A DNA stretch of 41,028 bases from a virus (taxonomy: Duplodnaviria; Caudoviricetes), in the IMG/VR virus record IMGVR_UViG_3300048998_000197, positions 1 to 41,028 of that record; one strand, 5' to 3'. Of this stretch, positions 635-41,028 are shown piece after piece. A program made the position numbers and the translations under genes. The first letter of the stretch is position 1; the number at the start of each line of letters is the position of its first letter. The notes below the pieces were generated by a model. It did not search any database, was not told the origin of the DNA, and saw only the letters and a program-made list of their open reading frames with translations.

Positions 635-1024
635 ATGGCAGGTAAATCTAAACACTCGTGGCAAGAGCGTCTGTGGCGGCGCGTCGATCGTCACGGTCCG
701 CCGCATCCTTATGTGCCGGCCCTTGGTCCGTGCTGGGTATGGCTCGGCAGCGGTTCGAACGGCTACGGGCAGCTGAAGGTGCGCGGGAAGATGGTCACAG
801 TTCATCGACTGGCGTATATGGACCTCGTCGGCCCTATCCAGTCTGGACTGGGAGTACTACACAGCTGTGATCGTCGCGGCTGCTGCAACCCGGCGCACTT
901 GCGACTAGGCACAGCAAAGGACAACGCCCAGGATAGAGATGCGCGAGGAAGACGTACGCCGCCACGCGGGGCGCTGAACGGACGATTTATCGACGGCCGG
1001 CATTGCACGCCGCCCAAAGCGTGA
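635..1024 (+). CDS. HNH homing endonuclease (HNH_3 type)
   Basis: CWVWLG..NGYGQL..VHRLAY..VLHSCDRRGCCNPAHLRLGTAKDN; more A/T-ending codons than neighbouring genes. Confidence 0.9.
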   Translation: MAGKSKHSWQERLWRRVDRHGPPHPYVPALGPCWVWLGSGSNGYGQLKVRGKMVTVHRLAYMDLVGPIQSGLGVLHSCDRRGCCNPAHLRLGTAKDNAQDRDARGRRTPPRGALNGRFIDGRHCTPPKA

Positions 1025-1070
1025 TACTGTCTTCTTATCTACTTCGACTGACACGTACCCGGAGGTTCAC

Positions 1071-1301
1071 ATGGGATTCGAGCTGGACATGGCCGACTAC
1101 GACGCACTGCTGCGCACCGAGGACCCGCCCACCGTCGTTGGGCAGTCCGACGTGACCATCTCCCGCAACGAGTACGACGCCCTCAAGCTGGCGGCGGCGA
1201 AGCTCGACGCGCTCCACGCGCATGGGGTTGCGGACTGGGCCGGCTACTGCTACGCTATGAGTGAGATGTACGGGAACGAGGAGTACGGCAGTGGGAGCTG
1301 A
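1071..1301 (+). CDS. Small phage protein with a GVxxWxGY motif
   Basis: RBS ggagg; LDALHAHGVADWAGYCYA resembles the 'LEAxGVDNWxGY' motif common in small phage proteins. Confidence 0.6.
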   Translation: MGFELDMADYDALLRTEDPPTVVGQSDVTISRNEYDALKLAAAKLDALHAHGVADWAGYCYAMSEMYGNEEYGSGS

Positions 1302-1767
1302 CTGGACAGATCGACTATGGCTGCGGGTGGATCGCAATGGTCCTCCGCACCCGTACGACCCGACACAGGGCCGCTGTTGGATCTGGACCGGCAGCACGTC
1401 TCGAGGCTACGGCCAGCTGCGCGTGAACGGGAAGAGCCGAAGCGTGCATCGACTGGCGTTTCGTCTAGCTACCGGGAACGATCCGGTGCACGACGTGCTG
1501 CACAGCTGTGACCGCAGAGCGTGCTGTAACCCGCATCACTTGCGAGCCGGCACGGCCAAAGACAACGTTGCCGATATGTATGACAGAGGACGAGCTGTAG
1601 TAGGCTCGTCACACAAACGGGCCAAGTTGACAGAGGCTGAAGTAGTGGAGATGCGCGCGAGCTACGCCGCTGGATTGACTTCTCAACGCACGTTGGCTAA
1701 AGTGTATTTGGTCTCTCAGCGCGTCGTCGGTTTAGTCGTTCGAAAAGAATCGTGGAGGCACACATGA
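1291..1767 (+). CDS. HNH homing endonuclease with C-terminal HTH-like DNA-binding region
   Basis: CWIWTG..GYGQL..VHRLAF..VLHSCDRRACCNPHHL..DN, then AKLTEAEVVEMR..SQRTLAKVY. GTG start overlaps the upstream gene end. Confidence 0.9.
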   Translation: MGADWTDRLWLRVDRNGPPHPYDPTQGRCWIWTGSTSRGYGQLRVNGKSRSVHRLAFRLATGNDPVHDVLHSCDRRACCNPHHLRAGTAKDNVADMYDRGRAVVGSSHKRAKLTEAEVVEMRASYAAGLTSQRTLAKVYLVSQRVVGLVVRKESWRHT

Positions 1768-1925
1768 CCAAGCGAGGCCAGAAGCGCAGTAAGAATCAGA
1801 AGCGCCGGGACGCACAGTTTCTCCGGTGGCGCAACAAGCGCGACGCGGTCACCGCGACGCTGGTGAGCCAGGGCTGGAGCTTCCGGGCCGTCGCCAGGAT
1901 GGTGCCCCCGCGACCGTCCCTGTAA
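1764..1925 (+). CDS. Small basic hypothetical protein (53 aa)
   Basis: ATGA overlap with the HNH stop, RBS ggagg; MTKRGQKRSKNQKRRDAQFLRWR... Confidence 0.55.
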   Translation: MTKRGQKRSKNQKRRDAQFLRWRNKRDAVTATLVSQGWSFRAVARMVPPRPSL

Positions 1926-1964
1926 GATGTTCGGACCGCGTGTCCGGCGAGGCTCGTTGAGCCA

Positions 1965-2329: not shown

Positions 2330-2766
2330 CCGCGCTGTGCCTGGTGCTGGGTGGGTGTTGCAACCCGCCCGGCGCCGATGTGAGCTACAAGTTCCTGGCC
2401 GAGCGCCGCGCCGTCGAGGCTGCAATGGTGCTGCGAGGAGCCCCCGTCGAGCTGCCCGACCCCGTTTACGAGTACCGCGCTCCAAGCGCTGTGTGCCCCG
2501 ACGACGCCCGGGGCTGCTGTTCGTGGGGGTGGTGTGCTGGTCTGTTCGTGCCGGACCGCCCAGAGGCGCTGGCGGGCGGCGCGACCCTTCTTCCCGCCGA
2601 GGTGGCGCTGCACGAGTACACACACCAGGCACTCCTCGATCAGGGCTGGCAAACAGCGATCGAGGAGCACCCGCAGATTTTCTGGGATGTGTGGAATGAC
2701 GCGCGCCGTGCGCGCGATTCAGCAGCAGACCACCAACAGTCCGACCAGGACACCGGCGGCGAATAA
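2317..2766 (+). CDS. Putative lipoprotein with HExxH zinc-metallopeptidase motif
   Basis: Signal and lipobox-like MRSVAALCLVLGGC; VALHEYTHQAL zincin motif plus a downstream H. Confidence 0.55.
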   Translation: MRSVAALCLVLGGCCNPPGADVSYKFLAERRAVEAAMVLRGAPVELPDPVYEYRAPSAVCPDDARGCCSWGWCAGLFVPDRPEALAGGATLLPAEVALHEYTHQALLDQGWQTAIEEHPQIFWDVWNDARRARDSAADHQQSDQDTGGE

Positions 2767-2892
2767 GAGCGGGAAGAGGAGCTGGGCCGCTAGGAACCTG
2801 TCGTGGTCCCTCTCGGCCCGCTCGAACTTTTCGAGGTCTGCCAGCCGCAGCCCTGACGGCCGGCAGTGCTTGGAGGAGTAGCGCCAGGTCAC
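2719..2892 (-). CDS. Small protein with C-terminal TM helix
   Basis: GTGA overlap with the upstream gene; ends LLFPLLFAAGVLVGLLVVCC. Confidence 0.5.
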   Translation of the reverse strand: MTWRYSSKHCRPSGLRLADLEKFERAERDHDRFLAAQLLFPLLFAAGVLVGLLVVCC

Positions 2893-3302
2893 TTGGTTGC
2901 CAGGAGGCGCCGCACCTCGGCCTTGAGCTGGTCGCGTTCGGCTTCCACCGTGCGCGCCTGTCTTGTCACCTCGAACCGTTTGGCTGTTTCATCGGCGAGC
3001 TGCTCGCGCAGCTGCGTCACGATACCTCGCAGTTCTGCGTTTCCCGTCTGCAAACGCTCGCGCATTGTTCGGCCCTCCGCCCGCGCGGCGGCGCGTTCGA
3101 ACATCATGCGGTCAACGGCGCTGCGTCCGCTGTCGATCTCCTGGATGAAGTTCACAGCCTGCAGACAGTGCCCCCGCTCCGCCGCCTCATCCTTCGGCTC
3201 AGCCGCGCGCATGAGAGCGATGGCGGTGTCGAACGTCGGCTGGTCGCCCGCCGGGTAGTTGCGCGCAATGGCCTTGAGGTTCTCGATCTCTTTCTCGTAC
3301 AT
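2889..3302 (-). CDS. Hypothetical coiled-coil protein
   Basis: MYEKEIENLKAIARNY...; RBS-like aagggg; heptad-like C-terminus. Confidence 0.65.
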   Translation of the reverse strand: MYEKEIENLKAIARNYPAGDQPTFDTAIALMRAAEPKDEAAERGHCLQAVNFIQEIDSGRSAVDRMMFERAAARAEGRTMRERLQTGNAELRGIVTQLREQLADETAKRFEVTRQARTVEAERDQLKAEVRRLLATK

Positions 3303-3304
3303 GG

Positions 3305-3379
3305 TCACAACCCCTTCAAGGTCCAGACAATAAACGCGAAACAGCACACGATCAGATACACCACGATCGCTTCAAGCAT
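3305..3379 (-). CDS. Tiny TM peptide (24 aa)
   Basis: RBS ggagg; MLEAIVVYLIVCCFAFIVWTLKGL. Confidence 0.45.
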   Translation of the reverse strand: MLEAIVVYLIVCCFAFIVWTLKGL

Positions 3380-3380
3380 G

Positions 3381-3553
3381 TTACGCGCGCCTCCAGGTCT
3401 TGGTCTCGAACTCAGCGTGGTAGAATACATGGCCCTCCCACGGATTGACTGCCCCGTAGCGTGGCCGAGTGCGGTCCTGGCGTAAGCCTCCTGGGTCCAG
3501 CCTTTGGTCTTGAGTAGGTTCAGTGCCGCTCGTAGTGCCTCGCTCGTCTTCAT
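3381..3553 (-). pseudogene. Possible frameshifted or deletion-fused small gene
   Basis: N-terminus MKTSEALRAALNLLKTKGWTQEAYAR. A different frame (YGAVNPWEGHVFYHAEFETKTWRRA*) ends just before the next ATG. Confidence 0.35.
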
Positions 3554-3765
3554 TTCACACCTCCAAAAGTTTTGGGTTCCGTGCCGGCATGTTGCCGGGC
3601 TCGTTGTGACCACCATGCAGCGGTCTCCTGGTACACTACCGCCTTGGCGAGCGAGAAACCAGAAAAAGTGGCACCCGCGTACGTCGCCCGTGCCATAGCG
3701 TACCACGTCTGCGCACACTCCTGGCAGTAGGCCGCGTGGTCCTGGTCGCTCTGAAAGAACGTCAT
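3550..3765 (-). CDS. Hypothetical protein
   Basis: Tightly packed in the leftward operon; ATGA overlap downstream. Confidence 0.6.
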   Translation of the reverse strand: MTFFQSDQDHAAYCQECAQTWYAMARATYAGATFSGFSLAKAVVYQETAAWWSQRARQHAGTEPKTFGGVK

Positions 3766-3766
3766 C

Positions 3767-4102
3767 TCAACCCCCGTTCATGCTGCACCGCAGCTCACGC
3801 GGCAGCCGGATTGCTGCCTTGCCTGCTGCGATGCTCAGCGGACGCGCTGCTGCTCGCAGCGCGCGCCTCAAAAGTTTCTGAGTCAGCGGCCGATCTTGCC
3901 GCGCCGAGTTGCACGGGTGGCACACCGTCACGAGGTTGCTCGCGTCGTTGGTACCGCCTTGTGATCGCGGGACAATGTGGTCCAACGTAAGGTCGGAGCC
4001 GAGCGGGAACACACCGCGGCAATATACGCAGTCGCCCCCGTCACGCAGGTAGATGGCCCAGCGCTTCTCAGGGCGGATCCACTTAGAACCGTTCGCGTTC
4101 AC
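3767..4102 (-). CDS. HNH endonuclease (short Zn-finger/McrA-like type)
   Basis: RDGGDCVYC..LTLDHIVPRSQGGTNDASNLVTVCHPCN. Confidence 0.9.
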   Translation of the reverse strand: MNANGSKWIRPEKRWAIYLRDGGDCVYCRGVFPLGSDLTLDHIVPRSQGGTNDASNLVTVCHPCNSARQDRPLTQKLLRRALRAAARPLSIAAGKAAIRLPRELRCSMNGG

Positions 4103-4373
4103 TCGACCCCTCTTCCCGCGTCTCAGATCTTTCGGAAACAGCGGCTGCAGCTTGCAGCTCAGCAGTGCCTCTCGGGTACAGCCTACCGCCGTGCTTCTCG
4201 ACCCAGCCCCCGCGCACAGCGCGGGAAACAGCGCCGAACGCCCCCCGTGTGGGCGTGCCCCCGCACAGGTTATGTGCGATGCGGTAAGGCGTCAGCCCCG
4301 GGAACTCCTCTACAAGCGCTATCACCTCGCGTGTGCGAGGGCCGCGTGTGGTCGTGGCTGCTTTGCGAGTCAC
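4083..4373 (-). CDS. Hypothetical protein, possibly winged-helix DNA-binding
   Basis: GTGA overlap; EVIALVEEFPGLTPYRIAHNL..AVSRAVRGGWVEK pattern. Confidence 0.5.
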   Translation of the reverse strand: MTRKAATTTRGPRTREVIALVEEFPGLTPYRIAHNLCGGTPTRGAFGAVSRAVRGGWVEKHGGRLYPRGTAELQAAAAVSERSETREEGSSERERF

Positions 4374-4675
4374 TTGAACACCTTGACGCTGAACGGCAGC
4401 ACACTGTCCGCGTTGCCCACGTAGAAAGCGGGCTCCGTTTCGCACGTGTCGGTGCGCTCATCCTCGCAATAGAACTCACGGAAGGTGATACAGCTGGCGT
4501 ACCAGAAACCAGACAGCTCCAAGCGGGAAGCAAGCCGAGCGGCTGCGTGTGCGTGGTTCTGGGCGGGGCTGAAAGCGTGCTCATAGGGCGAGCTGAGCTG
4601 ATTCCGCCCGCACTTGGCGACGAGGCGCCCAGCGCCGGTGCGCGGGTTCGCTGTGTACTTCGTTGTGATCTTCAT
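4370..4675 (-). CDS. Hypothetical early protein
   Basis: RBS aggagg; MKITTKYTANPRTGAGRLVAKC..NHAHAAARL. Confidence 0.7.
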   Translation of the reverse strand: MKITTKYTANPRTGAGRLVAKCGRNQLSSPYEHAFSPAQNHAHAAARLASRLELSGFWYASCITFREFYCEDERTDTCETEPAFYVGNADSVLPFSVKVFK

Positions 4676-4741
4676 GTCATTCCTCCTATCGAACCATGCA
4701 GGCACACGAGACAAGCTCATGTGCGAGCATCGGGCGCTAGG

Positions 4742-4834
4742 TCACAGCCAGACGTGGTGAGCGATCGCGCTGAGTGCGTAGGCGATGTAGACCACCAGGG
4801 CGTACATCACGAGGGCGCCGGTCACAAAGATCAT
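4742..4834 (-). CDS. Tiny TM peptide (30 aa)
   Basis: MIFVTGALVMYALVVYIAYALSAIAHHVWL. Confidence 0.4.
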   Translation of the reverse strand: MIFVTGALVMYALVVYIAYALSAIAHHVWL

Positions 4835-4874
4835 TGATTGGGTTGTCTCGTTGTCGAACATGGAAGCCTCCTAA

Positions 4875-5054
4875 TCAGCGCTTGTTGCAGATCTGCTGGT
4901 GAGCACCCGTGCGCACGCAGCTGAGAAACACGACCTCGTGCGAGGTCTTGACCGCGCATTCCTGCGCGGGACCGTGCCCCACGCACACCGGCTGCCCGGT
5001 CGGAGCCGCCATCAGAAGAGCCATCAGAGTTGCTGCTACCGTTGCCATCTTCAT
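4875..5054 (-). CDS. Small secreted Cys-containing protein (59 aa)
   Basis: RBS gaggtg after a promoter; signal-like MKMATVAATLMALLMAAP, then four Cys. Not in the ORF track. Confidence 0.55.
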   Translation of the reverse strand: MKMATVAATLMALLMAAPTGQPVCVGHGPAQECAVKTSHEVVFLSCVRTGAHQQICNKR

Positions 5055-5069
5055 TCACCTCTCACTATT

Positions 5070-5115
5070 ATATTCGCACGAAGCGGGAAGGGACTCAAGG
5101 GGAAAAGCGACAGTG
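5070..5115 (-). promoter_or_regulatory. Leftward sigma70-like early promoter, copy 1
   Basis: On the minus strand: cactgtcgcttttcccc-TTGAGT-17 nt-GAATAT. Near-identical to 5747-5791. Confidence 0.7.
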
Positions 5116-5128
5116 GTTGCTTTTCTTT

Positions 5129-5569
5129 TCAGTCAACGTTGTAATCTACGTACACGTCGTCGCTGTCTGCCTCTTGGTAGTACAGGCCGATAGGAGACAC
5201 ACTTTCAACATCCCAGTCGGTATTCTGGTACGTCGTCACACACTCGGCGAGTTCGCAGTCGTCGGCGTTCAACAGGCTGCGCAGCTCGCTCGCAATCGAC
5301 TGCACGAGGTAGGCCAGACATTCCGTCGCGGACCACTCATCCACCTCCTCTTCCGACCAGCCGCCACTCGCCACTGCGTCGTCGCGCATCGCCTGGACAG
5401 CCGCCTGTCCGTCGGACTTGAGCCAGCGGTCACATTTCCCAGCGATCGACATGGCGTTACTCCACGTCAGCTCTGCACATCGCGGCCCGAGGTTAGCCAC
5501 GCTGTTGCTCACATCCCAGGGCTCAATGGTGGCGAACATCACGGACACGTTGCAGGTAATCGTTGTCAT
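5129..5569 (-). CDS. Acidic early protein
   Basis: RBS aaggag; strongly D/E-rich (WSEEEVDEW, YQEADSDDVYVDYNVD). Confidence 0.75.
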   Translation of the reverse strand: MTTITCNVSVMFATIEPWDVSNSVANLGPRCAELTWSNAMSIAGKCDRWLKSDGQAAVQAMRDDAVASGGWSEEEVDEWSATECLAYLVQSIASELRSLLNADDCELAECVTTYQNTDWDVESVSPIGLYYQEADSDDVYVDYNVD

Positions 5570-5593
5570 GGTGGTCTCTCCTTGGGTGGTGTA

Positions 5594-5740
5594 TCAGCGG
5601 GCAGCTGCCAGGCGGGCCAGCACAGTCTCAGTGACCGGCTGCGCCTTGCCTTGCATCATGGCGCGGGCTGCAGCGTTGGCGAGCACACGCTCGACTCGGC
5701 TCATTTCCCACCCGCCCTTGATTCGCGTCGCGCTGTTCAT
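5594..5740 (-). CDS. Small hypothetical protein, probably leaderless
   Basis: ATG 6 nt after the predicted -10 box; MNSATRIKGGWEMSRVERVLANAAARAMMQGK... Confidence 0.5.
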   Translation of the reverse strand: MNSATRIKGGWEMSRVERVLANAAARAMMQGKAQPVTETVLARLAAAR

Positions 5741-5746
5741 GTCTAT

Positions 5747-5791
5747 ATACTCGCACGATTCAGCCCGGCCTCAAGGGGAAAAGAGACAGTG
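5747..5791 (-). promoter_or_regulatory. Leftward sigma70-like early promoter, copy 2
   Basis: cactgtctcttttcccc-TTGAGG-16 nt-GAGTAT; shares the upstream block and the cgtgc before -10 with copy 1. Confidence 0.7.
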
Positions 5792-5847
5792 CCCTCTTTT
5801 AGTGCGCCCAATGTGCGTATGGCTTTCAGCGCAGTGCTCATTTTCCC

Positions 5848-5876
5848 TGGCACCGAGTCCTCGCCTGCGCTATTAT
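5848..5876 (+). promoter_or_regulatory. Rightward promoter, divergent from the early leftward promoter
   Basis: TGGCAC-17 nt-TATTAT, with ATG 6 nt downstream. Confidence 0.5.
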
Positions 5877-5882
5877 CTATTC

Positions 5883-6071
5883 ATGGACGAAACGCTTACC
5901 ACCTCGATGCACCCGGAGTTCGACCCCCGCGCCGCCTGGGAAGCTGCCCGAGCCAGCTCAGAGCTGTACTGGCAGGAGCGTCGCCGCATTCAGGAGGCTC
6001 GCCGCCTTGAAGCTCTCGCGAGCTTGTGCGATGATGATCTCCGGCCCACCCTACTTCCCGCCTCTCGCTGA
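5883..6071 (+). CDS. Hypothetical protein
   Basis: MDETLTTSMHPEFDPRAAWEAAR...; directly follows the promoter. Confidence 0.55.
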   Translation: MDETLTTSMHPEFDPRAAWEAARASSELYWQERRRIQEARRLEALASLCDDDLRPTLLPASR

Positions 6072-6086
6072 AAGGACTGCCCCACC

Positions 6087-6317
6087 ATGAGTAAGCCCGC
6101 CCGCAAAGTGAGCGAAACGCCGAAGCGCACGTTCCATGCGCAGATCCTCATGCGATATCCGCAAGCCGCCCACAAGACGATCTACGTCAAAGACGGATGG
6201 CACCTTGAACCGTGCGCCGGAAGCGCGCACGAGAACCCCCACATCGACGGCTGCACGCTGTGCCTGGGCGCCACCTGGGGCTGGATGCTGGTCAAGGATG
6301 GAGCTGAGCAGCCATGA
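6087..6317 (+). CDS. Small Cys/His-containing hypothetical protein
   Basis: RBS aagga; PCAGSAHENPHIDGCTLC may bind Zn. Confidence 0.65.
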   Translation: MSKPARKVSETPKRTFHAQILMRYPQAAHKTIYVKDGWHLEPCAGSAHENPHIDGCTLCLGATWGWMLVKDGAEQP

Positions 6318-6397
6318 ACATCGACCCCGCACTTGAAGCCTACCTGACCCTATCTGCGATCGGGCTCGTCCTGCTCGCGTTCATCTTGAGCTTGTGA
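6314..6397 (+). CDS. Tiny TM peptide (27 aa)
   Basis: ATGA overlap, RBS ggag; MNIDPALEAYLTLSAIGLVLLAFILSL. Confidence 0.5.
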   Translation: MNIDPALEAYLTLSAIGLVLLAFILSL

Positions 6398-6605
6398 GCA
6401 GCAGCGCGCGTGCGGCAGCACGCAAGCGCATTCAAGCGTAGTCTGGTGTGGTACCGGACAGCCGCACACTCGAAGCTGCATCCTGCTGCATCGTGTGCGT
6501 AGTCAGGTACCACTACGCGACTGGGATACCTGCGATCAGGAAGATAGCCTGGCGTCAAGGGGGTTGGAAATGGGTTGTAGGACGCACGTCTCATGCCAAG
6601 TCCAT

Positions 6606-6676
6606 TTCTGCCCCACCCGAACCAACTTCTGCCCCATGATCCCTGTGTCCGGGCCTTTTGCCCCACCATGATCCCT
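6606..6676. repeat. Three direct repeats TT(C/T)TGCCCCA, two followed by CATGATCCCT
   Basis: Copies at 6606, 6627 and 6656. Confidence 0.75.
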
Positions 6677-6767
6677 CTGTCATAGCCCAACCGAGCACCA
6701 CGACAACAGGATCCGGGGGCTGCGACCCCCAATGACAGGGTCTCATCTCGGGAGGAATACCCGGTGA

Positions 6768-6783
6768 CACCCCCCGGGGGGTG
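6768..6783. repeat. Perfect 16-bp palindrome CACCCCCCGGGGGGTG
   Basis: Read directly from the sequence. Confidence 0.85.
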
Positions 6784-6973
6784 AACGAAGTGAATAACAC
6801 CTCTCAAAAGACATACCCTCCGGAATCGCGCCAGAAGCTCCCTAGAAGGCGCGGAACGAACGGTACGGCTAGGGTGGTAGCTCCGATACCCCATGCGAGG
6901 CACCTGGAGGCGCACAGCCGTTCGCAGCGGGTGCGCGAACGGTCAGCGAGCGGGCTGGAAGTAACGAACGGAA

Positions 6974-7453
6974 GGCAGAGCGGGAAGATCGGGGCCGATG
7001 CTATCGACGACCCTCCCCATTCTCAGCCTCTCCAGCCAATCCCGTAGCGTCCTGCCCGCACAGGATCCCCGACGCACCTAGATCGGGGCCGACGTCGCAC
7101 CCGTTGGTGGGCTGCCCCGCTTTCGAGCAACGTATGCTCGATGTAGTCTGGGGCCAGCGCTCCGATCCCGACCCACTGAACGGGCGGTCACGCTTTGGGC
7201 GAATCAGGGGGGCGGCGGTGCAGGATCGGCACCCAACACCGTCTTGAAGTCGGGGCTGCGCCGGTAGGCCCACCTGAGGTGGGGCCGCTCGTTCGCTACT
7301 CCGCCAGATCCCAGGCGTCGAGGAATGCAGCCTCGGTGGTGGCCGTGCCGACGGGCGCAGGCTTGTAGGGCCAGGCTCCGGCCGAGCCCCGGGCCACTCC
7401 TGATCCATAGATGCATATGAATCGGACAGGTACCCACATCTTCCCGCTCTGCC
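6974..7453. repeat. 16-bp perfect inverted repeat bracketing a 480-bp segment
   Basis: GGCAGAGCGGGAAGAT at 6974-6989 and ATCTTCCCGCTCTGCC at 7438-7453. Confidence 0.85.
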
Positions 7454-7555
7454 GCTCCTCGGTGAGTACCGTTACGGATCCGTTGGTGTATTCGTGGTAC
7501 CGGAGCATGCTGCAGCTTAGCACGAAGAATCGTTCGGTGCCATGTCGATTTCTGC

Positions 7556-7584
7556 TTGACGCAGCTTCAAAGTTGTGGTACACT
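7556..7584 (+). promoter_or_regulatory. Sigma70-like promoter upstream of the virion operon
   Basis: TTGACG-17 nt-TACACT with an extended TG; inverted repeat agcttca/tgaagct at 7563-7569 and 7584-7590. Confidence 0.75.
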
Positions 7585-7871
7585 GAAGCTACGTTGATGC
7601 AGCAGAGGATCACTGGTGCAGTGATGATGCTAGCTCCGTAGGCCGCAACGCGCAAGCGCTTGCGGCGGAACACTGCAGCCTTTGCCCGGTGCCCCACGGC
7701 AGGTTGTGGTGATGATACCACAGTTGCGCCAGGGCGGGAAGAAGGGGGGTCGGCCCTTCCCGCGGTGCAGCTCCTGCCCGATCCTAAATCGTCGCGGGCG
7801 CTCACCTTCGGCCCCACCGTCTGCCTTTTCCCGCGTCTCCCCATGCTGTCCCCTGCATGGAGAGCACCAGA

Positions 7872-10701: not shown

Positions 10702-10703
10702 TA

Positions 10704-11906: not shown

Positions 11907-11927
11907 ACCCAAGGGAACCAACCAGCC

Positions 11928-29217: not shown

Positions 29218-29223
29218 TCTGGC

Positions 29224-30561: not shown

Positions 30562-30565
30562 TCCA

Positions 30566-32615: not shown

Positions 32616-33205
32616 GCGACGCGATGACAGGACTGAACACAGGGAACCGGGCAGACAAGCCGGCGGCACGCGAGCAGGAGATCCTGACGCCGCGTAACAT
32701 CGCGGACTTCTGTCGCGCCGTGTTCGGCGGGACTATCGTGCTGGACCCATGCGCCGCGGTCGACGACTTCGGCGACCAGCGCGGCTTCGTGGAAGCTGGC
32801 ACCTGGGCGGACGGTATAGCCCTCGACGGTCTGGCCATCCAATGGACCAGCGGCACGTTCGTCAACCCGCCATACGCCGACCTGCAGACCTGGTTGCAGA
32901 AGGCGATGAGCGAAGCCTTCGAACCCCATCTTCCCGCGATTGCGGTGCTGTGTCCTGTGCGGAGCAACCGTAAGTGGTGGCGTCTGGCGCGCAACACCGC
33001 GCGGCGTATCGGCGCGTACATAGAGCTGGACCCGTTCCCGTTCGTTGGCTACGAGAAGCACACGATCATCATGAGCGGGAAGCGTGCGGGCCAGTCCCGC
33101 ACCAGCGACGAGTGTGCGCCCATGGCCATGTGCCTGATGCTGTTCAACGTCGACCGCGCCCAGGTGTGCGACAAGTTCAACCTGAAGGGTGAGGTGATGT
33201 TTTGA
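32612..33205 (+). CDS. Phage DNA N6-adenine methyltransferase (Dam-like)
   Basis: LTP..LDPCA..DGLAIQW..FVNPPY..WLQKA. Confidence 0.85.
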   Translation: MSDAMTGLNTGNRADKPAAREQEILTPRNIADFCRAVFGGTIVLDPCAAVDDFGDQRGFVEAGTWADGIALDGLAIQWTSGTFVNPPYADLQTWLQKAMSEAFEPHLPAIAVLCPVRSNRKWWRLARNTARRIGAYIELDPFPFVGYEKHTIIMSGKRAGQSRTSDECAPMAMCLMLFNVDRAQVCDKFNLKGEVMF

Positions 33206-33966: not shown

Positions 33967-34295
33967 CACGGCGGGCTGCGAGTGCCTACGCAGAGGTAGC
34001 CAAGCACGTCGCCCGCGAAGGCGAGTGCTGGGTTTGGACGGGGCGCCGCGATCGTAACGGGTACGGGCAGGTGCGCTTTCGTGGGAAGCTTTTGTTTGCT
34101 CATCGGCTTGCGTATCAAACCTTTGTCGGTATAATCCCTGATAGGCTGGTGGTGATGCACAGCTGCGATACGCCGGCTTGCTGCAATCCAGCACACCTAA
34201 GACTGGGAACGCAGGCCGAGAACATTCAAGACAGTGTGTCGAAGGGTCGGCACTCAAGTCAACAACAGAAACGATCCGGAGGTTTACATGAGTGA
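33963..34295 (+). CDS. HNH homing endonuclease
   Basis: CWVWTG..NGYG..AHRLAY..VMHSCDTPACCNPAHLRLGTQAEN. Confidence 0.9.
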   Translation: MTRRAASAYAEVAKHVAREGECWVWTGRRDRNGYGQVRFRGKLLFAHRLAYQTFVGIIPDRLVVMHSCDTPACCNPAHLRLGTQAENIQDSVSKGRHSSQQQKRSGGLHE

Positions 34296-35022
34296 GATAG
34301 GTAGTCAGGTTGGTGCGGTGTACAGTGCGATGGCGAAAGCCACGCGCGCGCTGGCCAAGATGGGCGTGGACAAGAGCAGCGAGAACGCGGCCCAGGGTTT
34401 CAACTTCCGCGGCATTGACGCGGTGCTCGGCGCCATGAGCAAAGTGCTGGTCGAGGCCCAGCTGGTGGTGCTTCCGAGCGTACTGGCTCACAACGTGAGT
34501 AGTCTGGTGGTGAACGGGAAGACCAAGTTCCTGGCGAACGTGCAGGTCCGGTACAACATCATGTCCGTCGTCGACGGCTCGTATCTCAGCACCGTCGTGT
34601 GTGCCGAGGCCATTGACGCCCAGGACAAGAGCACCAGCAAGGCGCTCAGCATGGCGTACAAATACTTCGCCTTCCAGACGTTCTGCATCCCGCTCGAGGG
34701 CGTGCTGGACGACGCGGACTCGGACAGCCCGATGCAGGACCGCGGCGAGCCCGCGGCTGAAGCTGCCCCCGAGAAGCCGGCGCGGAAGTCGCGCAAGACG
34801 GAAGCGGCCAAGGAAGAGGCGGCCCCCAGTCTTCCCGCTCCGGCCGTCGAGGACGCAGACGCAACGGCGCTGGTCGCCAAGCTGAACGAGCTGGCAGCCG
34901 GTGACGCAGCAGGGCTCCAGGCGCTCCGCGGACAGCTCCTGGGCTACCGTGGTCAAGCAGTCTTCGCCGCCCTCAAGGCGGCATACAAGGACGCGCAGGC
35001 GCGCGTCGAAGCCAAGGCGTGA
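34288..35022 (+). CDS. erf: ERF-family single-strand annealing protein
   Basis: QGFNFRGIDAV..DAQDKSTSKALSMAYKYFAFQTFCIP..DAD; next to the exonuclease. Confidence 0.8.
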   Translation: MSEIGSQVGAVYSAMAKATRALAKMGVDKSSENAAQGFNFRGIDAVLGAMSKVLVEAQLVVLPSVLAHNVSSLVVNGKTKFLANVQVRYNIMSVVDGSYLSTVVCAEAIDAQDKSTSKALSMAYKYFAFQTFCIPLEGVLDDADSDSPMQDRGEPAAEAAPEKPARKSRKTEAAKEEAAPSLPAPAVEDADATALVAKLNELAAGDAAGLQALRGQLLGYRGQAVFAALKAAYKDAQARVEAKA

Positions 35023-35038
35023 AACGACTGAGGAGGAA

Positions 35039-35386
35039 ATGAGCATGGGTCCCAAGTACGACATTGTCACGGTTCGCAAAGACGACAACGAGCAGACGTT
35101 CACAGACTACCAGGGCAACGAGCGCACTAGCAAGTTCCGTAAGGTGGGCGCTGTGTGGGAACGCGACGGAAAGCTGAGCCTCAGCTTCGAAGCGCCGCTC
35201 ACACAGGAAGACATCGACGACTGCTGGTTCAACTGCTTTGCCCGCAAAGAGCGCGGCGAAGCTCGGCCCGGGAAGAAGCCGGCAGCCAAGACGACGCCCG
35301 CGAAGAAGCCCACCGCCAAGGTCGGCCCTGCGAAGAAGCCACAAACAGAACCCTTCGACAGCGACGACGACTCCCTCGACGACTGA
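35039..35386 (+). CDS. Putative single-stranded DNA-binding protein
   Basis: RBS gaggagg; KVGAVWE..LSLSF core, Lys/Pro linker, acidic tail DSDDDSLDD; follows ERF. Confidence 0.5.
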   Translation: MSMGPKYDIVTVRKDDNEQTFTDYQGNERTSKFRKVGAVWERDGKLSLSFEAPLTQEDIDDCWFNCFARKERGEARPGKKPAAKTTPAKKPTAKVGPAKKPQTEPFDSDDDSLDD

Positions 35387-35459
35387 GACCAGACCGCACC
35401 CTGACGCACGTAGTCCGTGCCGACTGGCCGCCGTAAGCGGCCGTTTGTGTGGAGGTTGT

Positions 35460-37460
35460 GTGGGCGACGTTGAAACGCTGCTGAAGAAGATCGAGCAGGC
35501 CGCTGTGCTTGGTTTCGACGTGGAGTACACGAGCCCCACCATCAAGCTTCCCGGGCAGAAGGCGAAGCCCGACGCCCTTCGCGCCAAGCTGCACGGCTTT
35601 GCAATCGCCTACCTCTTGCCCGGTGAGCGCAAGCCCGGCAGTACCTACGTGCCCGTGCGGCACGAGGACGCGGACAACGCCGACAGCTTCGACGTGGCGC
35701 GCATTATCGATGCGCTGCTCGAGGCGGCGGACCGCGGGATCCGGGTGTGGGCCCACAACGCCAGCGCGGAGCTGCAGACCTGCATGAACGCGGGCTTCAT
35801 CAACGAGGGCACGCACTGCATGTTCCACGACTCGATGGTAGCCGTCTGGCTGCTGGGCAACCTGGACGAGGACGGCAACGAGAAGCGCAAGGGCGACGAC
35901 AAGCTGGCGCTGAAGTTCCTACGCGTGAAGATGTTGGGCAAGCCGGAGCGCCCGGACTTCCAAGCGATCACCAAGGGTCAGCCGCTCGAGACAGTGGCCC
36001 TGAGCGTGGTGGCCCCCTACTGCCGGCACGACGCCGTGGACTGCCTGGAGCTGGGCGAGTACGCCTGGGCCCGTCTTCCCGCCGAGTTGCAGCGCCACAT
36101 GGTCGAGCTGGATCAGAAGTGCATCGAGCCGATCCGCGCGATGGAAGCCGCGGGTATGGCGGTGGACACAGCCGCCCTGAGCGAAGCCGCCGCCGAGTGG
36201 TCGAAGCGCTGCGATGAGATCCGCGCCGAGTTCGAGCTGATGACCACCACGACCGTGAGCCTGCCCGTCAAGGTGAAGGTGGCCGACGGCCTGTTCAAGA
36301 ACGGGAACGTCAAGTATCGCACCGAGGTCCAGGACCTGGACTGTGAGCGCGGCGCCAACATCAGCAGCTCCGAGCAGATCAGCAAGTGGTGTTACGACGT
36401 GCTCAAGGTGTGGCCCACCGAGGGGCTCAAGCGCAACGCGAAGGGCGCCTTCAGCACCGAGAAGGAAACGCTCCTGCCGTTCTGTAAGCTGCCCGGCCTG
36501 GGCGGAGAGCTGGCGCGCATGCGGCTCGAGTTCAACAAGCTCGACAAGCTGGTGTCCACCTACTGCCGTCCGATGATCGCGGCCCCGTCGCAGTACGCCG
36601 ACGGGCGCCTGCACTGCCGGTTCAAGCTGACGGGCACGGACACGCAGCGCCTGAGTAGCAGCGGCCCCAACCTGCAGAACCTTCCTTCCCGCTCCAAGGA
36701 AGGGAAGGCAATCCGCAAGGCCATCGTGGCGCCCCCCGGTCGCAAGATCGTGGTGGTCGACGCCAACCAGGCCGAGCTGCGGATCGCGGCGCACCTGAGC
36801 CAGGACCCGGAGCTGAGCCTCTGCTACGAGCTGGAGGAAGATGTGCATGCCGGTACGCTGGCGATGCTGCGGGCGATGGACCCCAGCTTCGAGCGCACCG
36901 ACGCCAAGGTGGTCAACTTCAGCTCGCTGTACAACATCACGGCGCGCGCCCTCAGCGCGCCCGGCAAGATGAACTGCAGCGAGGAGCGAGCGCAGCTCGC
37001 CCTCGACACCTTCTACCGCCGCTTCCCCACCATCGAGGCGTTCAAGGAGTGGTGTTACAACTTCATCATTGAGAACGGCTACATGCGCACGGTCGACGGT
37101 TTCCGCCGCCCGATCTCCGGGAAGGTGGTGTTCGACAAGATCCTGCGCAAGCGCGCCCTCCACTGGATGAGCCGCAACCGCGGCCCCAACACCGCCATTC
37201 AGGGCAGCGTGGCGGGCATCATGAAGATCGCCATGGTCCGCCTGTATGACGAGTGGCGGGCAGCGGGCTTCTGGGGTCACGGCCCCAACCAGGTGGTGCT
37301 CATCTGCCAGGAGCACGACAGCTTCGTGGCCGAGGCCGGCGAAGCCGTGGCCGAGCGCGCCAAGGCGGACATGATCCGCCACGTCGAGACCGCAGTGAAG
37401 CTTCGTGTCCCCTTCAAGGCCGACGGCAAAATCGGGAACAGCTGGGCCGACTGTAAGTGA
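35460..37460 (+). CDS. Family A DNA polymerase with 3'-5' exonuclease
   Basis: Exo motifs FDVE, AHN, YCRHD; RLSSSGPNLQN; motif A DANQAELR, motif B RTDAKVVNF..LY, motif C HDS; RBS ggagg before GTG 35460. Confidence 0.92.
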   Translation: MGDVETLLKKIEQAAVLGFDVEYTSPTIKLPGQKAKPDALRAKLHGFAIAYLLPGERKPGSTYVPVRHEDADNADSFDVARIIDALLEAADRGIRVWAHNASAELQTCMNAGFINEGTHCMFHDSMVAVWLLGNLDEDGNEKRKGDDKLALKFLRVKMLGKPERPDFQAITKGQPLETVALSVVAPYCRHDAVDCLELGEYAWARLPAELQRHMVELDQKCIEPIRAMEAAGMAVDTAALSEAAAEWSKRCDEIRAEFELMTTTTVSLPVKVKVADGLFKNGNVKYRTEVQDLDCERGANISSSEQISKWCYDVLKVWPTEGLKRNAKGAFSTEKETLLPFCKLPGLGGELARMRLEFNKLDKLVSTYCRPMIAAPSQYADGRLHCRFKLTGTDTQRLSSSGPNLQNLPSRSKEGKAIRKAIVAPPGRKIVVVDANQAELRIAAHLSQDPELSLCYELEEDVHAGTLAMLRAMDPSFERTDAKVVNFSSLYNITARALSAPGKMNCSEERAQLALDTFYRRFPTIEAFKEWCYNFIIENGYMRTVDGFRRPISGKVVFDKILRKRALHWMSRNRGPNTAIQGSVAGIMKIAMVRLYDEWRAAGFWGHGPNQVVLICQEHDSFVAEAGEAVAERAKADMIRHVETAVKLRVPFKADGKIGNSWADCK

Positions 37461-37467
37461 GGACGCC

Positions 37468-37881
37468 ATGCTCTACACCATTCACCACACAATCCCTGCC
37501 GCCGTACGTCGTGAGCTGCAAGAGCTGCACGAGGATGTCCTGCCGGCCGACGACGTGCCGGGGTTCCGCGGCCACTCCGCCGCGGTCCTGCGCTTCGACG
37601 CTGAGGGCCCTGTCGTCTCTTTTGTGACGTGGCGAACCAGCACCCGTGGGGCATGGCTCGACCGTATCGGAGTCGCCGCTGAGTGGCGCAAGAACGGCTT
37701 TGCGCGGGGCATGCTCGACCTCGCTCTGGCCGAGGGTGACGGGCTCCCCTGGCGCACCTACATCGCCGCTCACAACATCCCATCTCAGCGGCTGTTCATC
37801 TCGCGGGGCTTTGTGCCCTACAAGTTCTTCACGCAACAGTCTACCAGCTTCATTCGATTCCAGAAAGGTCTCAGCAAGTGA
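37468..37881 (+). CDS. GNAT-family acetyltransferase
   Basis: LDRIGVAAEWRKNGFARGM acetyl-CoA motif; NIPSQRLFISRGF. Confidence 0.8.
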   Translation: MLYTIHHTIPAAVRRELQELHEDVLPADDVPGFRGHSAAVLRFDAEGPVVSFVTWRTSTRGAWLDRIGVAAEWRKNGFARGMLDLALAEGDGLPWRTYIAAHNIPSQRLFISRGFVPYKFFTQQSTSFIRFQKGLSK

Positions 37882-38864
37882 AACAAGCGAACACCGACAA
37901 GGCAGTGATCCTCGAGCTGCGCCAGCAGATCGCCCAGCTCGAACAGGGCCAACGCCTTGAGCAGGACATCAAGCGGCTCAGCAACCGTATCGAGCTTCCC
38001 GGGAAGAAGCCGCTCATGCGCTTCGCGCCGCGACACACGCGCCCGGCGGTCGCAACCCTGCTCTGCTCCGACTGGCATGTGGGCGAGACCGTGAACCCGG
38101 CCACGGTCAACGGCCTGAACGAGTTCAACCCCAAGATTGCCGAGGCCCGCATGGAGCGCCTGTTTGCAGGCGCGCGCTATCAGGTCGAGCACAAGCGCTC
38201 GATGTTCGACATCCGCCGCATGCTCGTCGTCCTGAACGGCGACATGATCAGCGGCTACATCCATCCGGAGCTGGTCGAGTCCAACAGCATGAGCCCCGTG
38301 CGGGAAGTCATGTTTGCGGCCAAGCACATCATTCGCGGGCTGCGCTCGCTGCTCGAGGTGGAGGACCTGGACCTGCACGTTGTGTGTCAGTTCGGAAACC
38401 ACGGCCGCACCACGCACAAGACCCATATCGCCACGGCGGCGGACAACAGCTACGAGACTTTGCTCTACCACTTCGTGGCCGCCCACTTCAAGAGCGAGAA
38501 GCGCATCACCTGGCAGCTGCCCACGGGCCACCATGCAGTCACCACCGCGGCGGGCATGCGCGTGCACATCCACCACGGCGACAGCGTGCGCTCACAGGGC
38601 GGCGTCGGCGGAATCCTCGTGCCGCTCAACCGGGCAGCCGGTCGGTGGCGCGAGATGTTCAAGGCGCAGCTCAGCCTGGTGGGCCACTTCCACCAGTACC
38701 ACCCTGGCCAGAAGCTCATCGTGAACGGCTCGCTCGTTGGTCACGGCACGTTCCCGGACTTCCTCGGCTACGAGCCGGAGCCCGCGCAGCAGGCGTTCTT
38801 TCTCATCGACGCCAAGCGCGGAGTCACTGAGCACTGCCCGATCTGGGTACAAGAGCCTGCATGA
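37878..38864 (+). CDS. Calcineurin-like metallophosphoesterase
   Basis: SDWH, GDM, GNHG, HHGD and GHFH motifs. Confidence 0.85.
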   Translation: MKQANTDKAVILELRQQIAQLEQGQRLEQDIKRLSNRIELPGKKPLMRFAPRHTRPAVATLLCSDWHVGETVNPATVNGLNEFNPKIAEARMERLFAGARYQVEHKRSMFDIRRMLVVLNGDMISGYIHPELVESNSMSPVREVMFAAKHIIRGLRSLLEVEDLDLHVVCQFGNHGRTTHKTHIATAADNSYETLLYHFVAAHFKSEKRITWQLPTGHHAVTTAAGMRVHIHHGDSVRSQGGVGGILVPLNRAAGRWREMFKAQLSLVGHFHQYHPGQKLIVNGSLVGHGTFPDFLGYEPEPAQQAFFLIDAKRGVTEHCPIWVQEPA

Positions 38865-39301
38865 GGACGCACTGTAAGCACGGGCATGAGCTGTCGGTCG
38901 TCGGAGTCCGTTCCGACGGCTACTGCCGCGAGTGTTCGCGACGCAGCCGCGCCAAGGCACCGACTAACGAGACGTGTTCACGAGGTCACCGGTTGGCGGA
39001 TGTTGGCTGGACGGCTGTGAACGGGCGCTGCAAGGCGTGCCATTCGGAGAACCAACGAGCGCGCACGTCCGGGTGCTCCCCCGACGCGTATCGTACACTC
39101 TGGGAGCGGCAGCGAGGGTGTTGTGCCATCTGCCAGAAACCGGAGACTGTGTGTCGTAAGGGCAGACCGCTGGCGTTGGCGGCGGACCACAGTCATACTT
39201 CAGGAGAGGTCAGGGGACTGTTATGTTCAAAGTGCAATCGAGGTCTCGGCTTGTTCGCGGACGATCCAGAACTACTCCGCCGCGCAGCAGAGTATGTATA
39301 A
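38861..39301 (+). CDS. Recombination endonuclease VII-like nuclease (probably homing)
   Basis: CAIC..LAADHSHTSGEVRGLLCSKCNRGLG; two N-terminal CxxGH..CxxC repeats. Confidence 0.85.
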   Translation: MRTHCKHGHELSVVGVRSDGYCRECSRRSRAKAPTNETCSRGHRLADVGWTAVNGRCKACHSENQRARTSGCSPDAYRTLWERQRGCCAICQKPETVCRKGRPLALAADHSHTSGEVRGLLCSKCNRGLGLFADDPELLRRAAEYV

Positions 39302-39332
39302 AGGTAGCCCAAGTCTGGGTTCAGGAGGCAGC

Positions 39333-39764
39333 GTGACGCCGGTCTGGTTTCGCTTCGACCGTCAGCGGGATTACGAGGAGGTGATGCTGGCGTGGATCGA
39401 GGAGCTTACAGGCAGCCCAACTTGCTTCCCGCATCCCGGTTACGACCCGAGCGCGTTCGTGCCGGAGCTGATTCCGGTGCTCGACGCCTGGGTGATGACC
39501 AAGGACGCCATGGCGCTGGTGACCACCCACAAAGGTGACTGGCTGGGCACGACACCGGGCGAAGTGCTACTGTGCCACGGAGACAACGCGCTGAAGATGG
39601 TGAACGGGGCCGTGGGGCCACTACACATCTACCACGGTTGCTCGGCATACGGTGTCGGCAGGCCCACACCGTGGCGACTGTTCACCAAGGCACCGGAAGT
39701 TCACACGTCGCCCGTTGCCATCCGGCGGCAGGCAAGAGTCTTGGCAAAATGGAGGGTAGGATGA
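39333..39764 (+). CDS. Hypothetical protein
   Basis: RBS ggagg before GTG; high-GC3 frame; ATGA overlap downstream. Confidence 0.6.
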   Translation: MTPVWFRFDRQRDYEEVMLAWIEELTGSPTCFPHPGYDPSAFVPELIPVLDAWVMTKDAMALVTTHKGDWLGTTPGEVLLCHGDNALKMVNGAVGPLHIYHGCSAYGVGRPTPWRLFTKAPEVHTSPVAIRRQARVLAKWRVG

Positions 39765-40273
39765 CAGCGAAACGGACAGAGCCGGTACTGAGCACCGACA
39801 GCGAGGAGCGCAAGCGGACCCCGATCTATTCGGGTCTCATCGCCTACGCGCCCCTGGCCCTTGCGGCCATGGCGCGGGTGAGCCAGCGCGGGAACGACAA
39901 GCACAACCCCGGGCAGCCGCTGCACCACAACCGCGACAAGTCGGGCGACCACCTGGACTGCGTAGCACGGCACCTGTGCGACGCGGAGACCTACAATGAG
40001 GAGCTGGGCGAGTACGAGGACGCAGCCTGTATGGCGTGGCGGGCTGTGATGTTCCTGCAGGAGCTGGAAGAGGGGCGCCTGGGCAAGGGCCTACCGCCCG
40101 GCGCCCGCAAGTCACCGCAGCCCGCGGAGCCGGCGACCCCCGCACGTGCGTCCTGGATATGCCTCTTCTGTCAGGGCTCCGGGTTCGTCGACGGGCGTAC
40201 GTGCGGGACGTGTAGGGGTTCGGGCTTCCGGCCAGCCGCGTCCCCGAAGGATGGCAACCACCACACTCGATAA
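39761..40273 (+). CDS. dATP/dGTP diphosphohydrolase-domain protein (DUF5664-like) with a C-terminal CxxCxGxG Zn finger
   Basis: YAPLALAAMARVSQRGNDKHNPG..DHLDCVARHL..MAWRA; CLFCQGSG..CGTCRGSG. Confidence 0.7.
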   Translation: MTAKRTEPVLSTDSEERKRTPIYSGLIAYAPLALAAMARVSQRGNDKHNPGQPLHHNRDKSGDHLDCVARHLCDAETYNEELGEYEDAACMAWRAVMFLQELEEGRLGKGLPPGARKSPQPAEPATPARASWICLFCQGSGFVDGRTCGTCRGSGFRPAASPKDGNHHTR

Positions 40274-41028
40274 GGCGCGCGCACGGGCACTGCTGAACGA
40301 GAAGCGGCGGCGGGAGAGATTCCCTGCCGCCGTTTCCGCTTTGGTTGCGGGCCTGTTCCCGGCCCAGCGCCGCATCTTCGACAGCAAGCACCGCCGCCGG
40401 CTGTGCCACGCCGGCCGCCGCGGAGGTAAGACCAGCGTATTGCTGGCGCTGGCCCTGTCCAGCGCCCTCAAGCACCCCGGCGCCATGGTCCCCATCATCG
40501 AGCGGACCCTGAGCTGCGCCGCGGCCGACGCGCTCTGGCAGGAGCTGCAGATGTGGGCCGTCAAGCACGGCGTGGACGTGAAGTTTCAGCACACGTTGAA
40601 GATCGCCACGCTGCCCAACGGCTCATACCTCCAGATGTGGGGCGCCGACACCGCCGAGGCGGCAGACAAGCTACGCGGCGGCAAGTTCCACACCGTCCTG
40701 GTCGATGAGATCGGCGCCTGGCGCAGCAGCATCCTGCGCTTCCTGGTGGTCGATGTTCTCGAGCCCGCCACCTTCGACTTCCGCGGTGAGATCGTGCTCC
40801 TGGGCACGCCCACCGTGCTCAAGGAAGGCTACTTCTGGGATTGCGTCAACAACCCTGGCTGGGAGAAGCACCACTGGACGCTGCTGGACAACCCGTACAT
40901 CGGCGAGTCACGGCAGGCGCGGGAAGAGCAGCTGGCCGAGGTGCGGGCCACCAACTGCTGGACCGAAAAGACCAGCCAGTACATCCGGGAGTACCTGGGC
41001 GAGTTCACCGACACGTTCGACGAGTGCG
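40251..41028 (+). CDS. terL: Terminase large subunit, N-terminal ATPase domain (3' partial)
   Basis: Not in the ORF track because the frame is open to the window end. Walker A AGRRGGKT, Walker B VLVDE, coupling motif LLGTP, DNPY, REYLGEF. Confidence 0.9.
   Translation, partial: MATTTLDKARARALLNEKRRRERFPAAVSALVAGLFPAQRRIFDSKHRRRLCHAGRRGGKTSVLLALALSSALKHPGAMVPIIERTLSCAAADALWQELQMWAVKHGVDVKFQHTLKIATLPNGSYLQMWGADTAEAADKLRGGKFHTVLVDEIGAWRSSILRFLVVDVLEPATFDFRGEIVLLGTPTVLKEGYFWDCVNNPGWEKHHWTLLDNPYIGESRQAREEQLAEVRATNCWTEKTSQYIREYLGEFTDTFDEC

Follow-up and report, generated by a model that had tools for sequence, protein, structure and literature searches.

A primase is present in 98% of the viruses that have a DNA polymerase, and the named exceptions are few (PMC4889955). 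T7 gp4 and the PrimPol of NrS-1 both act at short, asymmetric template words with a flank preference; active priming sites in T7 lie about 1–6 kb apart across the genome (PMC12839067), and NrS-1 PrimPol recognises a site of 8 bases (PMC8718748). In both cases the primase is encoded by the phage and the sites have been proven biochemically. A family A polymerase with a small protein, CCPol-MP of SCCmec, also primes, with a site preference and a first nucleotide that is mostly dGTP (PMC7581432). Here we describe a word, GCGGGAAG, that is dispersed over both strands of a phage genome (Duplodnaviria; Caudoviricetes), the IMG/VR record IMGVR_UViG_3300048998_000197. The whole phage record was analysed (41,028 bases, CheckV 100%, 65.8% G+C) and is called the window. 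The word is a different one from those of T7 and NrS-1, and no primase was found beside it.

Asymmetric G-rich octamers are also the most over-used words of phages P1, LLS and MD8, where they are Chi sites. P1 carries 50 Chi, on both strands (10.1101/2021.07.08.451572), and Chi is the top octamer of Pseudomonas phage MD8 (PMC12315714). Is the word of the window a start signal for the copying of DNA in phages that appear to lack a primase? Or is it a site at which degradation stops and recombination begins? Here we investigate the word in the window, in two close relatives and in a wider clade of phages that is defined by its polymerase.

The word and its selection

An exact count on both strands gives 44 copies. 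On the plus strand 22 read GCGGGAAG, spanning 783..40926 (783, 2769, 4523, 5083, 6980, 7734, 7898, 10077, 14823, 18808, 19932, 22124, 23486, 24736, 25765, 27309, 28348, 29801, 32122, 33075, 38300 and 40919), and the 22 copies on the minus strand, which read CTTCCCGC on the plus strand, span 2590..39432 (2590, 4112, 6054, 7440, 7756, 9741, 12382, 14434, 16441, 19689, 23305, 25475, 25916, 26848, 31428, 32198, 32930, 33663, 34831, 36075, 36685 and 39425). An earlier inspection, referred to here as the sequence-only reading, had put the number at about 43; all of its coordinates are correct, and the plus-strand copy at 18808 had been overlooked. Its estimate that only about 3 copies would be expected by chance agrees with dinucleotide shuffles of the window (n = 100), which hold a mean of 2.6 and a maximum of 7. 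Under an order-2 model GCGGGAAG and CGGGAAGA are the two highest-ranked octamers of the window.

The excess is not a by-product of the encoded proteins or of codon choice. In 400 synonymous shuffles that preserve the proteins of 45 gene models in checked frames (35,520 bases), 3.2 copies are expected in genes, with a maximum of 9, and 35 are observed, with copies even within essential genes. The 9-mer GCGGGAAGA occurs 21 times in genes against 0.9 expected, and the 7-mer CGGGAAG 54 times against 9.7. A set of 44 gene models, 3 of them out of frame, holds 34 copies against 2.9 expected, 3.4 when codons are shuffled within genes, and 6.5 (maximum 15 in 1000) when they are shuffled within classes of residue and next residue. 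The excess therefore withstands codon-preserving and next-residue-preserving null models, and with them the refuting test set by the sequence-only reading. In the same set the word fills 34 of the 89 places that the proteins permit and uses all six frame and strand classes, which bears out the remark that it is written in several reading frames. A further 9 copies lie in the 6,201 bases that are non-coding or unassigned. There is no link to the direction of transcription or to gene starts (from 17 of 35 to 20 of 34 copies are antisense), as had been claimed. These results support the proposal of a dispersed cis-acting site under selection at the level of the DNA, about one per 2 kb per strand.

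The core of the word is sharp. One-base variants are enriched over synonymous shuffles only where the change falls at the ends, and GCGGGAGG and GCGGGGAG are depleted (0 against 3.2 expected in genes). Between 784 and 40926 there are 20 further copies of CGGGAAG without the first G, 12 of them as CCGGGAAG, and 6 copies of GCGGGAAT; in genes CCGGGAAG is found 11 times against 3.7 expected and GCGGGAAT 6 times against 0.9, and both are probable weaker variants of the word. Where the flanking base is synonymously free, the position directly 3' of the word is A in 11 of 13 cases (1.5 expected), the +2 position is A in 6 of 16 (1.8 expected), the +4 position is G in 10 of 14 (6.4 expected), and the position directly 5' is A in 5 of 15 (1.8 expected). 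Taken with the enrichment of end variants only, these preferences describe a sharp core with graded purine flanks.

The copies are spread more evenly than randomly placed sites. The coefficient of variation (CV) of the gaps is 0.70 for all sites (P = 0.007), 0.68 for the plus-strand copies (P = 0.04) and 0.64 for the minus-strand copies (P = 0.02); for the 7-mer it is 0.61 and 0.66 on the two strands (P = 0.001 and 0.013). Control words (n = 792) have a median CV of 1.0, and none of 205 control word pairs is equally even on both strands. The mean gap per strand is 1.9 kb for the word and 1.2–1.4 kb for the 7-mer. An apparent alternation of strands and a surplus of close divergent pairs were lost under a rotation null (P = 0.14) and were not seen in relatives. 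Selection acts on the cover of each strand and not on a paired geometry.

Some local arrangements had been singled out by the sequence-only reading. The fused palindrome CTTCCCGGGAAG, two overlapping 7-mers, is present at 37995..38006. The stretch before the portal gene had been named as the densest, with 5 copies; when 44 sites are placed at random, 39% of the placements have five of them within 918 bases somewhere, so that extra density there is not shown. This non-coding stretch does hold a convergent pair of copies 14 bases apart (7734..7763; copies at 7734 and 7756), which is kept in both close relatives with a spacer of 12 bases and is a candidate origin pair. An unusually stable hairpin was considered for the pair and rejected, since shuffled sequences fold just as well (z 0.0 and 0.7). 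A copy had also been placed in an early promoter spacer: the copy at 5083 does sit between -35-like and -10-like words, but it is absent in both close relatives.

Conservation in close and distant relatives

The two close relatives are IMG/VR contigs, A (L081/L001) and B (L082/L002), with capsid proteins 88–89% identical to that of the window and DNA identity of 78–80%. Contig A has 22 copies on both strands in 24.9 kb and B has 18 in 18.0 kb, with gap CVs of 0.53–0.80. In the remaining 78 capsid loci of the same search the word stays at or below 0.28 per kb, and in 151 Myxococcota genomes at or below about 0.15 per kb, against 1.07 per kb in the window; equal enrichment elsewhere, which would have made the word a compositional quirk, was thus not seen in these sets. 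The word is retained in 10 of 20 alignable sites in A and in 7 of 11 in B, compared with about 19–21% of background octamers (P = 0.002 each). There is turnover as well, with 10 sites found only in the window and 6 only in A, often accompanied by an amino-acid change. The 6 private sites of A sit farther from kept same-strand sites than expected by chance (P = 0.035). Gains adjoining same-strand losses were looked for and are not significant (P = 0.89 and 0.15). Discordance between the window and a relative involves 3.4 of the 8 bases of a site, compared with 2.4 in the background (P = 0.007).

More distant relatives were reached through the polymerase. A search with this protein gave a distinct clade with an inserted beta-hairpin, represented in IMG/VR by G457 (41.2 kb) and G459 (42.8 kb), both of them genomes that have terminal repeats, and by a fragment, G458; the window, G457 and G459 are the three complete genomes compared here. 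The ratio of observed to expected copies (O/E) of the core CGG(G/A)AA is 1.9–3.0 in all five loci of the clade with readable DNA and 0.96–1.48 in all seven outgroup loci. A quick tree built from 28 polymerases places the five enriched rows in one branch of 14 rows (Shimodaira-Hasegawa-like approximate likelihood-ratio test, SH-aLRT, 100), the other nine being proteins without DNA. In G457 the top 6-mer is CGGGAA (125 against 49; 73 against 35.5 in 24 chosen genes), and the top two in the genes of G459 are GGAAAT (16 against 2.7) and CGGAAA (21 against 6.2). The words of these two genomes would be of the ACGGGAA and GCGG(G/A)AAT types. Tetranucleotide profiles of G457 and G459 correlate at r = 0.18, which hints that the two have different hosts and yet a common core. 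G457 also carries a tyrosine integrase (L514 1106-2227) and, directly after the polymerase, an Acb2/Tad1-type anti-defence protein (L503 11930-12160).

Among relatives at 46–49% capsid identity, codon shuffles put CGGGAA or CGGAAA first of all 6-mers in L164 (20 against 3.0), L165 (18 against 4.1) and L085 (12 against 1.9); these words rank ninth in L163 (14 against 5.8) and are weaker in L166 (17 against 9.1), and six more distant capsid loci show no excess of CGGGAA. Other capsid relatives over-use words of their own on both strands: CACCACC in L188 (17/12), CAACCAAC in L174/L175 (8/8) and CGCTCCGC in L167 (9/10). L099 over-uses AATCGAAC on one strand. A helicase-profile scan found no further member of the clade, a paired-word scan of IMG/VR returned mostly tandem repeats, with enrichment in 1 of 80 loci with flanks, and no cultured relative was found by DNA, capsid or portal protein, the polymerase giving matches only at about 27%. 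The word is a real, selected, family-wide DNA signal.

Replication genes and the function of the word

Besides an SU10-like podovirus head and tail set, the window codes for a DnaB-type helicase, a family A polymerase, YqaJ, Erf, a RuvC-like protein, endonuclease VII, an N6-adenine methylase, a gp5.9-like protein and five HNH proteins. The non-virion genes common to the window, G457 and G459 are those of the helicase, polymerase, YqaJ, Erf, RuvC-like protein, terminase, a helix-turn-helix protein and, by alignment, a small protein before the polymerase. A primase is missing from this list. No primase family was matched among the 64 + 30 open reading frames (ORFs) of the window, nor was a DnaG zinc ribbon found in a six-frame search; there was no family match in the 65 ORFs of G457 or the 49 of G459, none among the frames common to the three genomes, and a scan for primase motifs gave stray matches only. 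Structure-atlas searches for two proteins of the window (the frames at 39123 and 28302) found no primase-like fold. These negatives rest on profile and motif searches, which a divergent primase could escape. Within that scope, neither a cognate DnaG/TOPRIM primase nor one of the archaeo-eukaryotic type (AEP) was detected in the window, G457 or G459.

The helicase (29292..30095, plus strand; 267 aa, AAA_25 match) has its Walker A motif at residue 49, where DnaB has it at 203, and therefore lacks the N-terminal domain, which in bacteria is the part that binds DnaG. It is equally short in the relatives (259 aa in G457, 254 aa in G459). A short DnaB-type helicase without this domain is also found on the IncQ plasmid RSF1010, where the RepA helicase works with two hairpin sites, ssiA and ssiB, and the RepB' primase. 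The convergent pair at 7734/7756 recalls these sites, whereas the window has 44 short sites in place of two hairpins and no match to RepB'.

The polymerase (35478..37460, plus strand) is a family A enzyme with a proofreading domain. Its model, with a predicted local distance difference test (pLDDT) score of 92.9, shows a long beta-hairpin at residues 258–291 of the modelled 660, which is common to the clade. Just upstream, at 35039..35386 on the plus strand, is a small protein of 115 aa with an acidic tail, which may be a single-strand-binding protein or a partner of the polymerase; it has no Pfam or PHROG match, and relatives of it are found in G457, G458 and, by alignment alone, G459. As in CCPol-MP, a family A polymerase thus stands with a small protein and a helicase, the small protein of CCPol-MP being largely beta. 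CCPol itself has no proofreading domain and prefers an origin site (PMC7581432), whereas the polymerase of the window and its clade retain the D-x-E exonuclease motif, so that they are not of the polymerase-domain-only type, and the word forms a genome-wide array. A CTT specificity of CCPol-MP was considered and is not borne out by PMC7581432.

The reading that we favour, at a probability of about 45%, is that lagging-strand synthesis is primed at the word, which either a cryptic activity of the phage or the DnaG of the host would read. The lack of a detectable primase in the window and two complete relatives is the reason for taking the word as a likely mark of the starts of DNA copying. The strand read on unwound template would be the pyrimidine one, (T)CTTCCCGC, giving a primer rich in purines, and each stretch the size of an Okazaki fragment would have one site. 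Sites would be needed on both strands because replication would run both ways, starting at an origin or at recombination intermediates that YqaJ and Erf produce. The reader would most likely be a phage activity, either the polymerase acting with a small partner in the manner of CCPol-MP or a primase that has diverged beyond detection; host DnaG would be the less likely reader. An array of primase sites should be spread on the scale of Okazaki fragments and exceed what codon effects allow, as this word does. Priming was one of several functions put forward by the sequence-only reading, and it gains from the even spacing per strand, the three complete genomes in which no primase was found and the truncated helicase, though it is unproven. 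It remains the best reading in that it explains the cover of each strand every 1–2 kb, the purine-rich strand with graded flanks, the link with the polymerase clade and the missing primase. A bolder form of it seems doubtful to us: that an uncultured podophage family replicates with neither a DnaG- nor an AEP-type primase, its proofreading family A polymerase starting strands at a fixed word through the clade-specific beta-hairpin or the adjoining small protein, and both strands of its genomes being recoded to carry the word every 1–2 kb, a word that would drift along with the divergence of the polymerase.

Several points weigh against priming. Every step from word to enzyme, the function of the word and the priming enzyme included, is inferred, and absence from profile searches is not proof of absence. 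A helicase without the DnaG-binding domain speaks against the version that uses the primase of the host. Even spacing is not clear in G457 (CV 0.79–1.03) or G459 (0.62–1.17) for the words tried, and part of the excess in G457 falls in short GNGK-type peptide repeats. The near relative L166 has a core O/E of just 1.45, whereas some distant capsid relatives, covered here without their replication genes, are enriched too (O/E 2.8 in L099, 2.9 in L213, 2.3 in L094, 2.2 in L221 and 1.9 in L030). An unrelated, actinophage-like contig of 54 kb, L306 (G001), has 19 copies of GCGGGAAG on both strands against 4 of a reversed control; these are denser in its first 10 kb. The word may also be a signal imposed by a host.

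The main rival is a Chi-like site, at which a host helicase-nuclease (RecBCD or AddAB) or the YqaJ system of the phage would stop degrading and start recombination, cover of both strands limiting the loss from any break. The word is an asymmetric G-rich octamer that agrees with Escherichia coli Chi at 5 of 8 positions, it is the top octamer of its genome as in MD8, P1 offers a precedent for copies on both strands, its 3' flank is under selection, and even cover of each strand suits a Chi-like site equally well. We nevertheless consider this unlikely on the whole. The proposal, also made by the sequence-only reading, fits badly with the phage's own recombination module, YqaJ exonuclease (33202..33966, plus strand) and Erf annealing protein (34234..35022, plus strand), together with a gene for a T7 gp5.9-like RecBCD inhibitor (1071..1301, plus strand). 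Lambdoid phages that have both a recombinase and an inhibitor avoid Chi (PMC3784561), LLS and MD8 are without a recombination module, and where these sources (PMC3784561, PMC12315714) describe abundant Chi a recombinase or inhibitor is absent, a pattern that comes from lambdoid phages. The gp5.9-like gene is kept in A and B and was not found in G457 or G459; the genomes bearing the inhibitor have the sharpest word and those in which none was found a weaker one. MD8, P1 and LLS cluster Chi near their ends, whereas the word is evenly spaced. No bacterial lineage rich in the word surfaced in a scan of GTDB or in the 151 Myxococcota, tests that a Chi of modest density would escape.

Other explanations are less probable still. 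The word could be bound by a phage DNA-binding protein that organises, coats or regulates the genome, a candidate being the helix-turn-helix protein (31120..31539, plus strand; weakly like sigma region 4), whose gene is common to G457, G458 and G459; the nine copies outside assigned genes and the conserved convergent pair before the portal gene would suit such a role. The sequence-only reading had suggested this protein, and its part is unproven and on balance improbable, since the copies ignore transcription direction and gene starts, A and B have both lost the promoter copy, and a protein that binds double strands would need no separate even cover of each strand. Biased mutation or repair, or host word usage, might let the word accumulate with little function; the depletion of the one-base neighbours GCGGGAGG and GCGGGGAG, the discordance of sites at 3.4 of 8 bases, as multi-base conversion would give, and the only about twofold, unevenly spaced excess in distant relatives point that way. 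A neutral process would not, however, yield even spacing per strand, retention above the flanking background or gains that fill gaps, and we give it little credence. About as little, or slightly less, can be given to a phage nicking enzyme whose nicks on both strands would start strand-displacement synthesis, with Erf annealing the displaced strands. This scheme calls for an asymmetric site on both strands and for no primase, and an HNH gene (3767-4102) is kept in A and B; that gene was not found in G457 or G459, both of which have the core, and no replication mode of this kind is known to us. Very improbable is a role as the target of the phage's own N6-adenine methylase (32612..33205, plus strand; PF05869), marking self DNA, a candidate of the sequence-only reading. 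The adenines lie on one strand of the word and the methylase occurs in the window, G457 and G458. The PF05869 family is mostly specific for GATC, methylase targets need no even spacing per strand, and the reading is weakened because the complete genome G459 has the enriched core and no methylase match. Least credible of all is that the word is a site to which a host tRNA-Gly binds as a primer by its 3' end. Among 151 Myxococcota genomes, 109 have tRNA-Gly genes ending in the complement of A followed by the word's first seven bases, and A is favoured before the word (5 of 15 free positions, 1.8 expected), but the match stops after these 8 bases. At position 8 the tRNA calls for A where the word has G, and GCGGGAAA shows no enrichment (1 against 1.4); there is no selection on the two bases opposite the CC of CCA, and no tRNA end matching the full word was among the 150 matches listed.

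Two known classes of dispersed chromosomal words were also compared. DNA uptake sequences of the Neisseriaceae and Pasteurellaceae resemble the word in having about one copy per kb, on both strands and within coding sequence at a cost to the protein; they belong to the host chromosome, whereas no bacterial lineage with this word so dense was found in the GTDB scan or in the genomes in which it was counted. FtsK-orienting polar sequences (KOPS), with the consensus GGGNAGGG, were rejected: the window has only 6 KOPS-type words in all, and a 22:22 split between strands is not strand-polar.

Host search, other features and meaning

The GTDB scan asked for three words within about 260 bases and covered 52 of 64 parts, with 120 loci, 80 of them with DNA. 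An estimated 150 or so hits are scattered over many phyla. Genome-wide the word reaches 0.12–0.19 per kb in 5 genomes. None of the lineages covered comes near the phage density, which argues against a host word of the uptake-sequence kind, though a modest Chi could still escape. The densest hits, from Gemmatimonadales, are intergenic tandem runs with no genome-wide excess, made of a 7-base GGGAAGC unit often in inverted blocks (L394 5973-6121 and L374 6001-7702). In a 400-kb sample of G051, not a likely host, the word has an O/E of 1.29 and a strand split of 15:8, and an apparent strand skew in G022 is an artefact. The capsid profile matched 4 of 401 Myxococcota genomes at about 25–31% identity, on contigs without the word. 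These SU10-like phage contigs are binned as G184:C39, G219:C3, G273:C281 and G077:C465, and G184:C39 has ATCACCTGC 9 times against 0.3 expected. The integrase of G457 had no match in the 401 Myxococcota genomes.

The record is cut inside the terminase gene, which runs from 40146-41028 on to 1-632. Relatives run across the 41028/1 join, and the assembly is therefore circularly permuted; the non-coding stretch 6340-7850 may hold the real genome ends. At the head of the early genes are leftward, sigma-70-like promoter blocks (5070-5125 and 5731-5805), nearly identical to each other and conserved in A and B. Four related HNH_3 homing-type endonuclease genes start at 635, 1261, 30085 and 33963, and A carries HNH_3 genes at other places, as expected of mobile inserts. 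Near the polymerase are genes for a 5'-nucleotidase (32013-32615), a GNAT acetyltransferase (37405-37881) and a dATP/dGTP diphosphohydrolase domain (39761-40273), which could point to control of the nucleotide pool or to base modification. The window has no tRNA or Rfam match. AATT, TTAA and GAGCTC are absent from it (order-2 expectation about 10, 7 and 19 sites), GACGTC, GGGCCC and CCATGG are scarce, and GAGCTC is also absent in A, B and L505; the absent and scarce words likely reflect avoidance of host restriction sites.

In the literature, GCGGGAAG or CTTCCCGC as a whole word appears only in eukaryote papers, as judged by titles and the starts of abstracts, and a search for primase sites that are enriched or evenly spaced in phage genomes returned nothing on this word, with few subscription journals covered. 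The finding works most like an array of priming sites, yet it fails on the cognate primase, and the missing primase is the new part. A primase nearly always accompanies a DNA polymerase of the virus's own (98%, PMC4889955), a rule that this family apparently breaks. The genomes display a probable recognition word, so a direct search for the missing activity needs only four small proteins and a template of 30 bases. If the word is Chi-like, it would be the first Chi of an unstudied host group and would contradict the rule that phages with a RecBCD inhibitor avoid Chi. If the priming reading is true in its self-priming form, a family A polymerase that proofreads and starts strands at a specific sequence would represent a primase of a new kind and a useful tool for amplification without primers.

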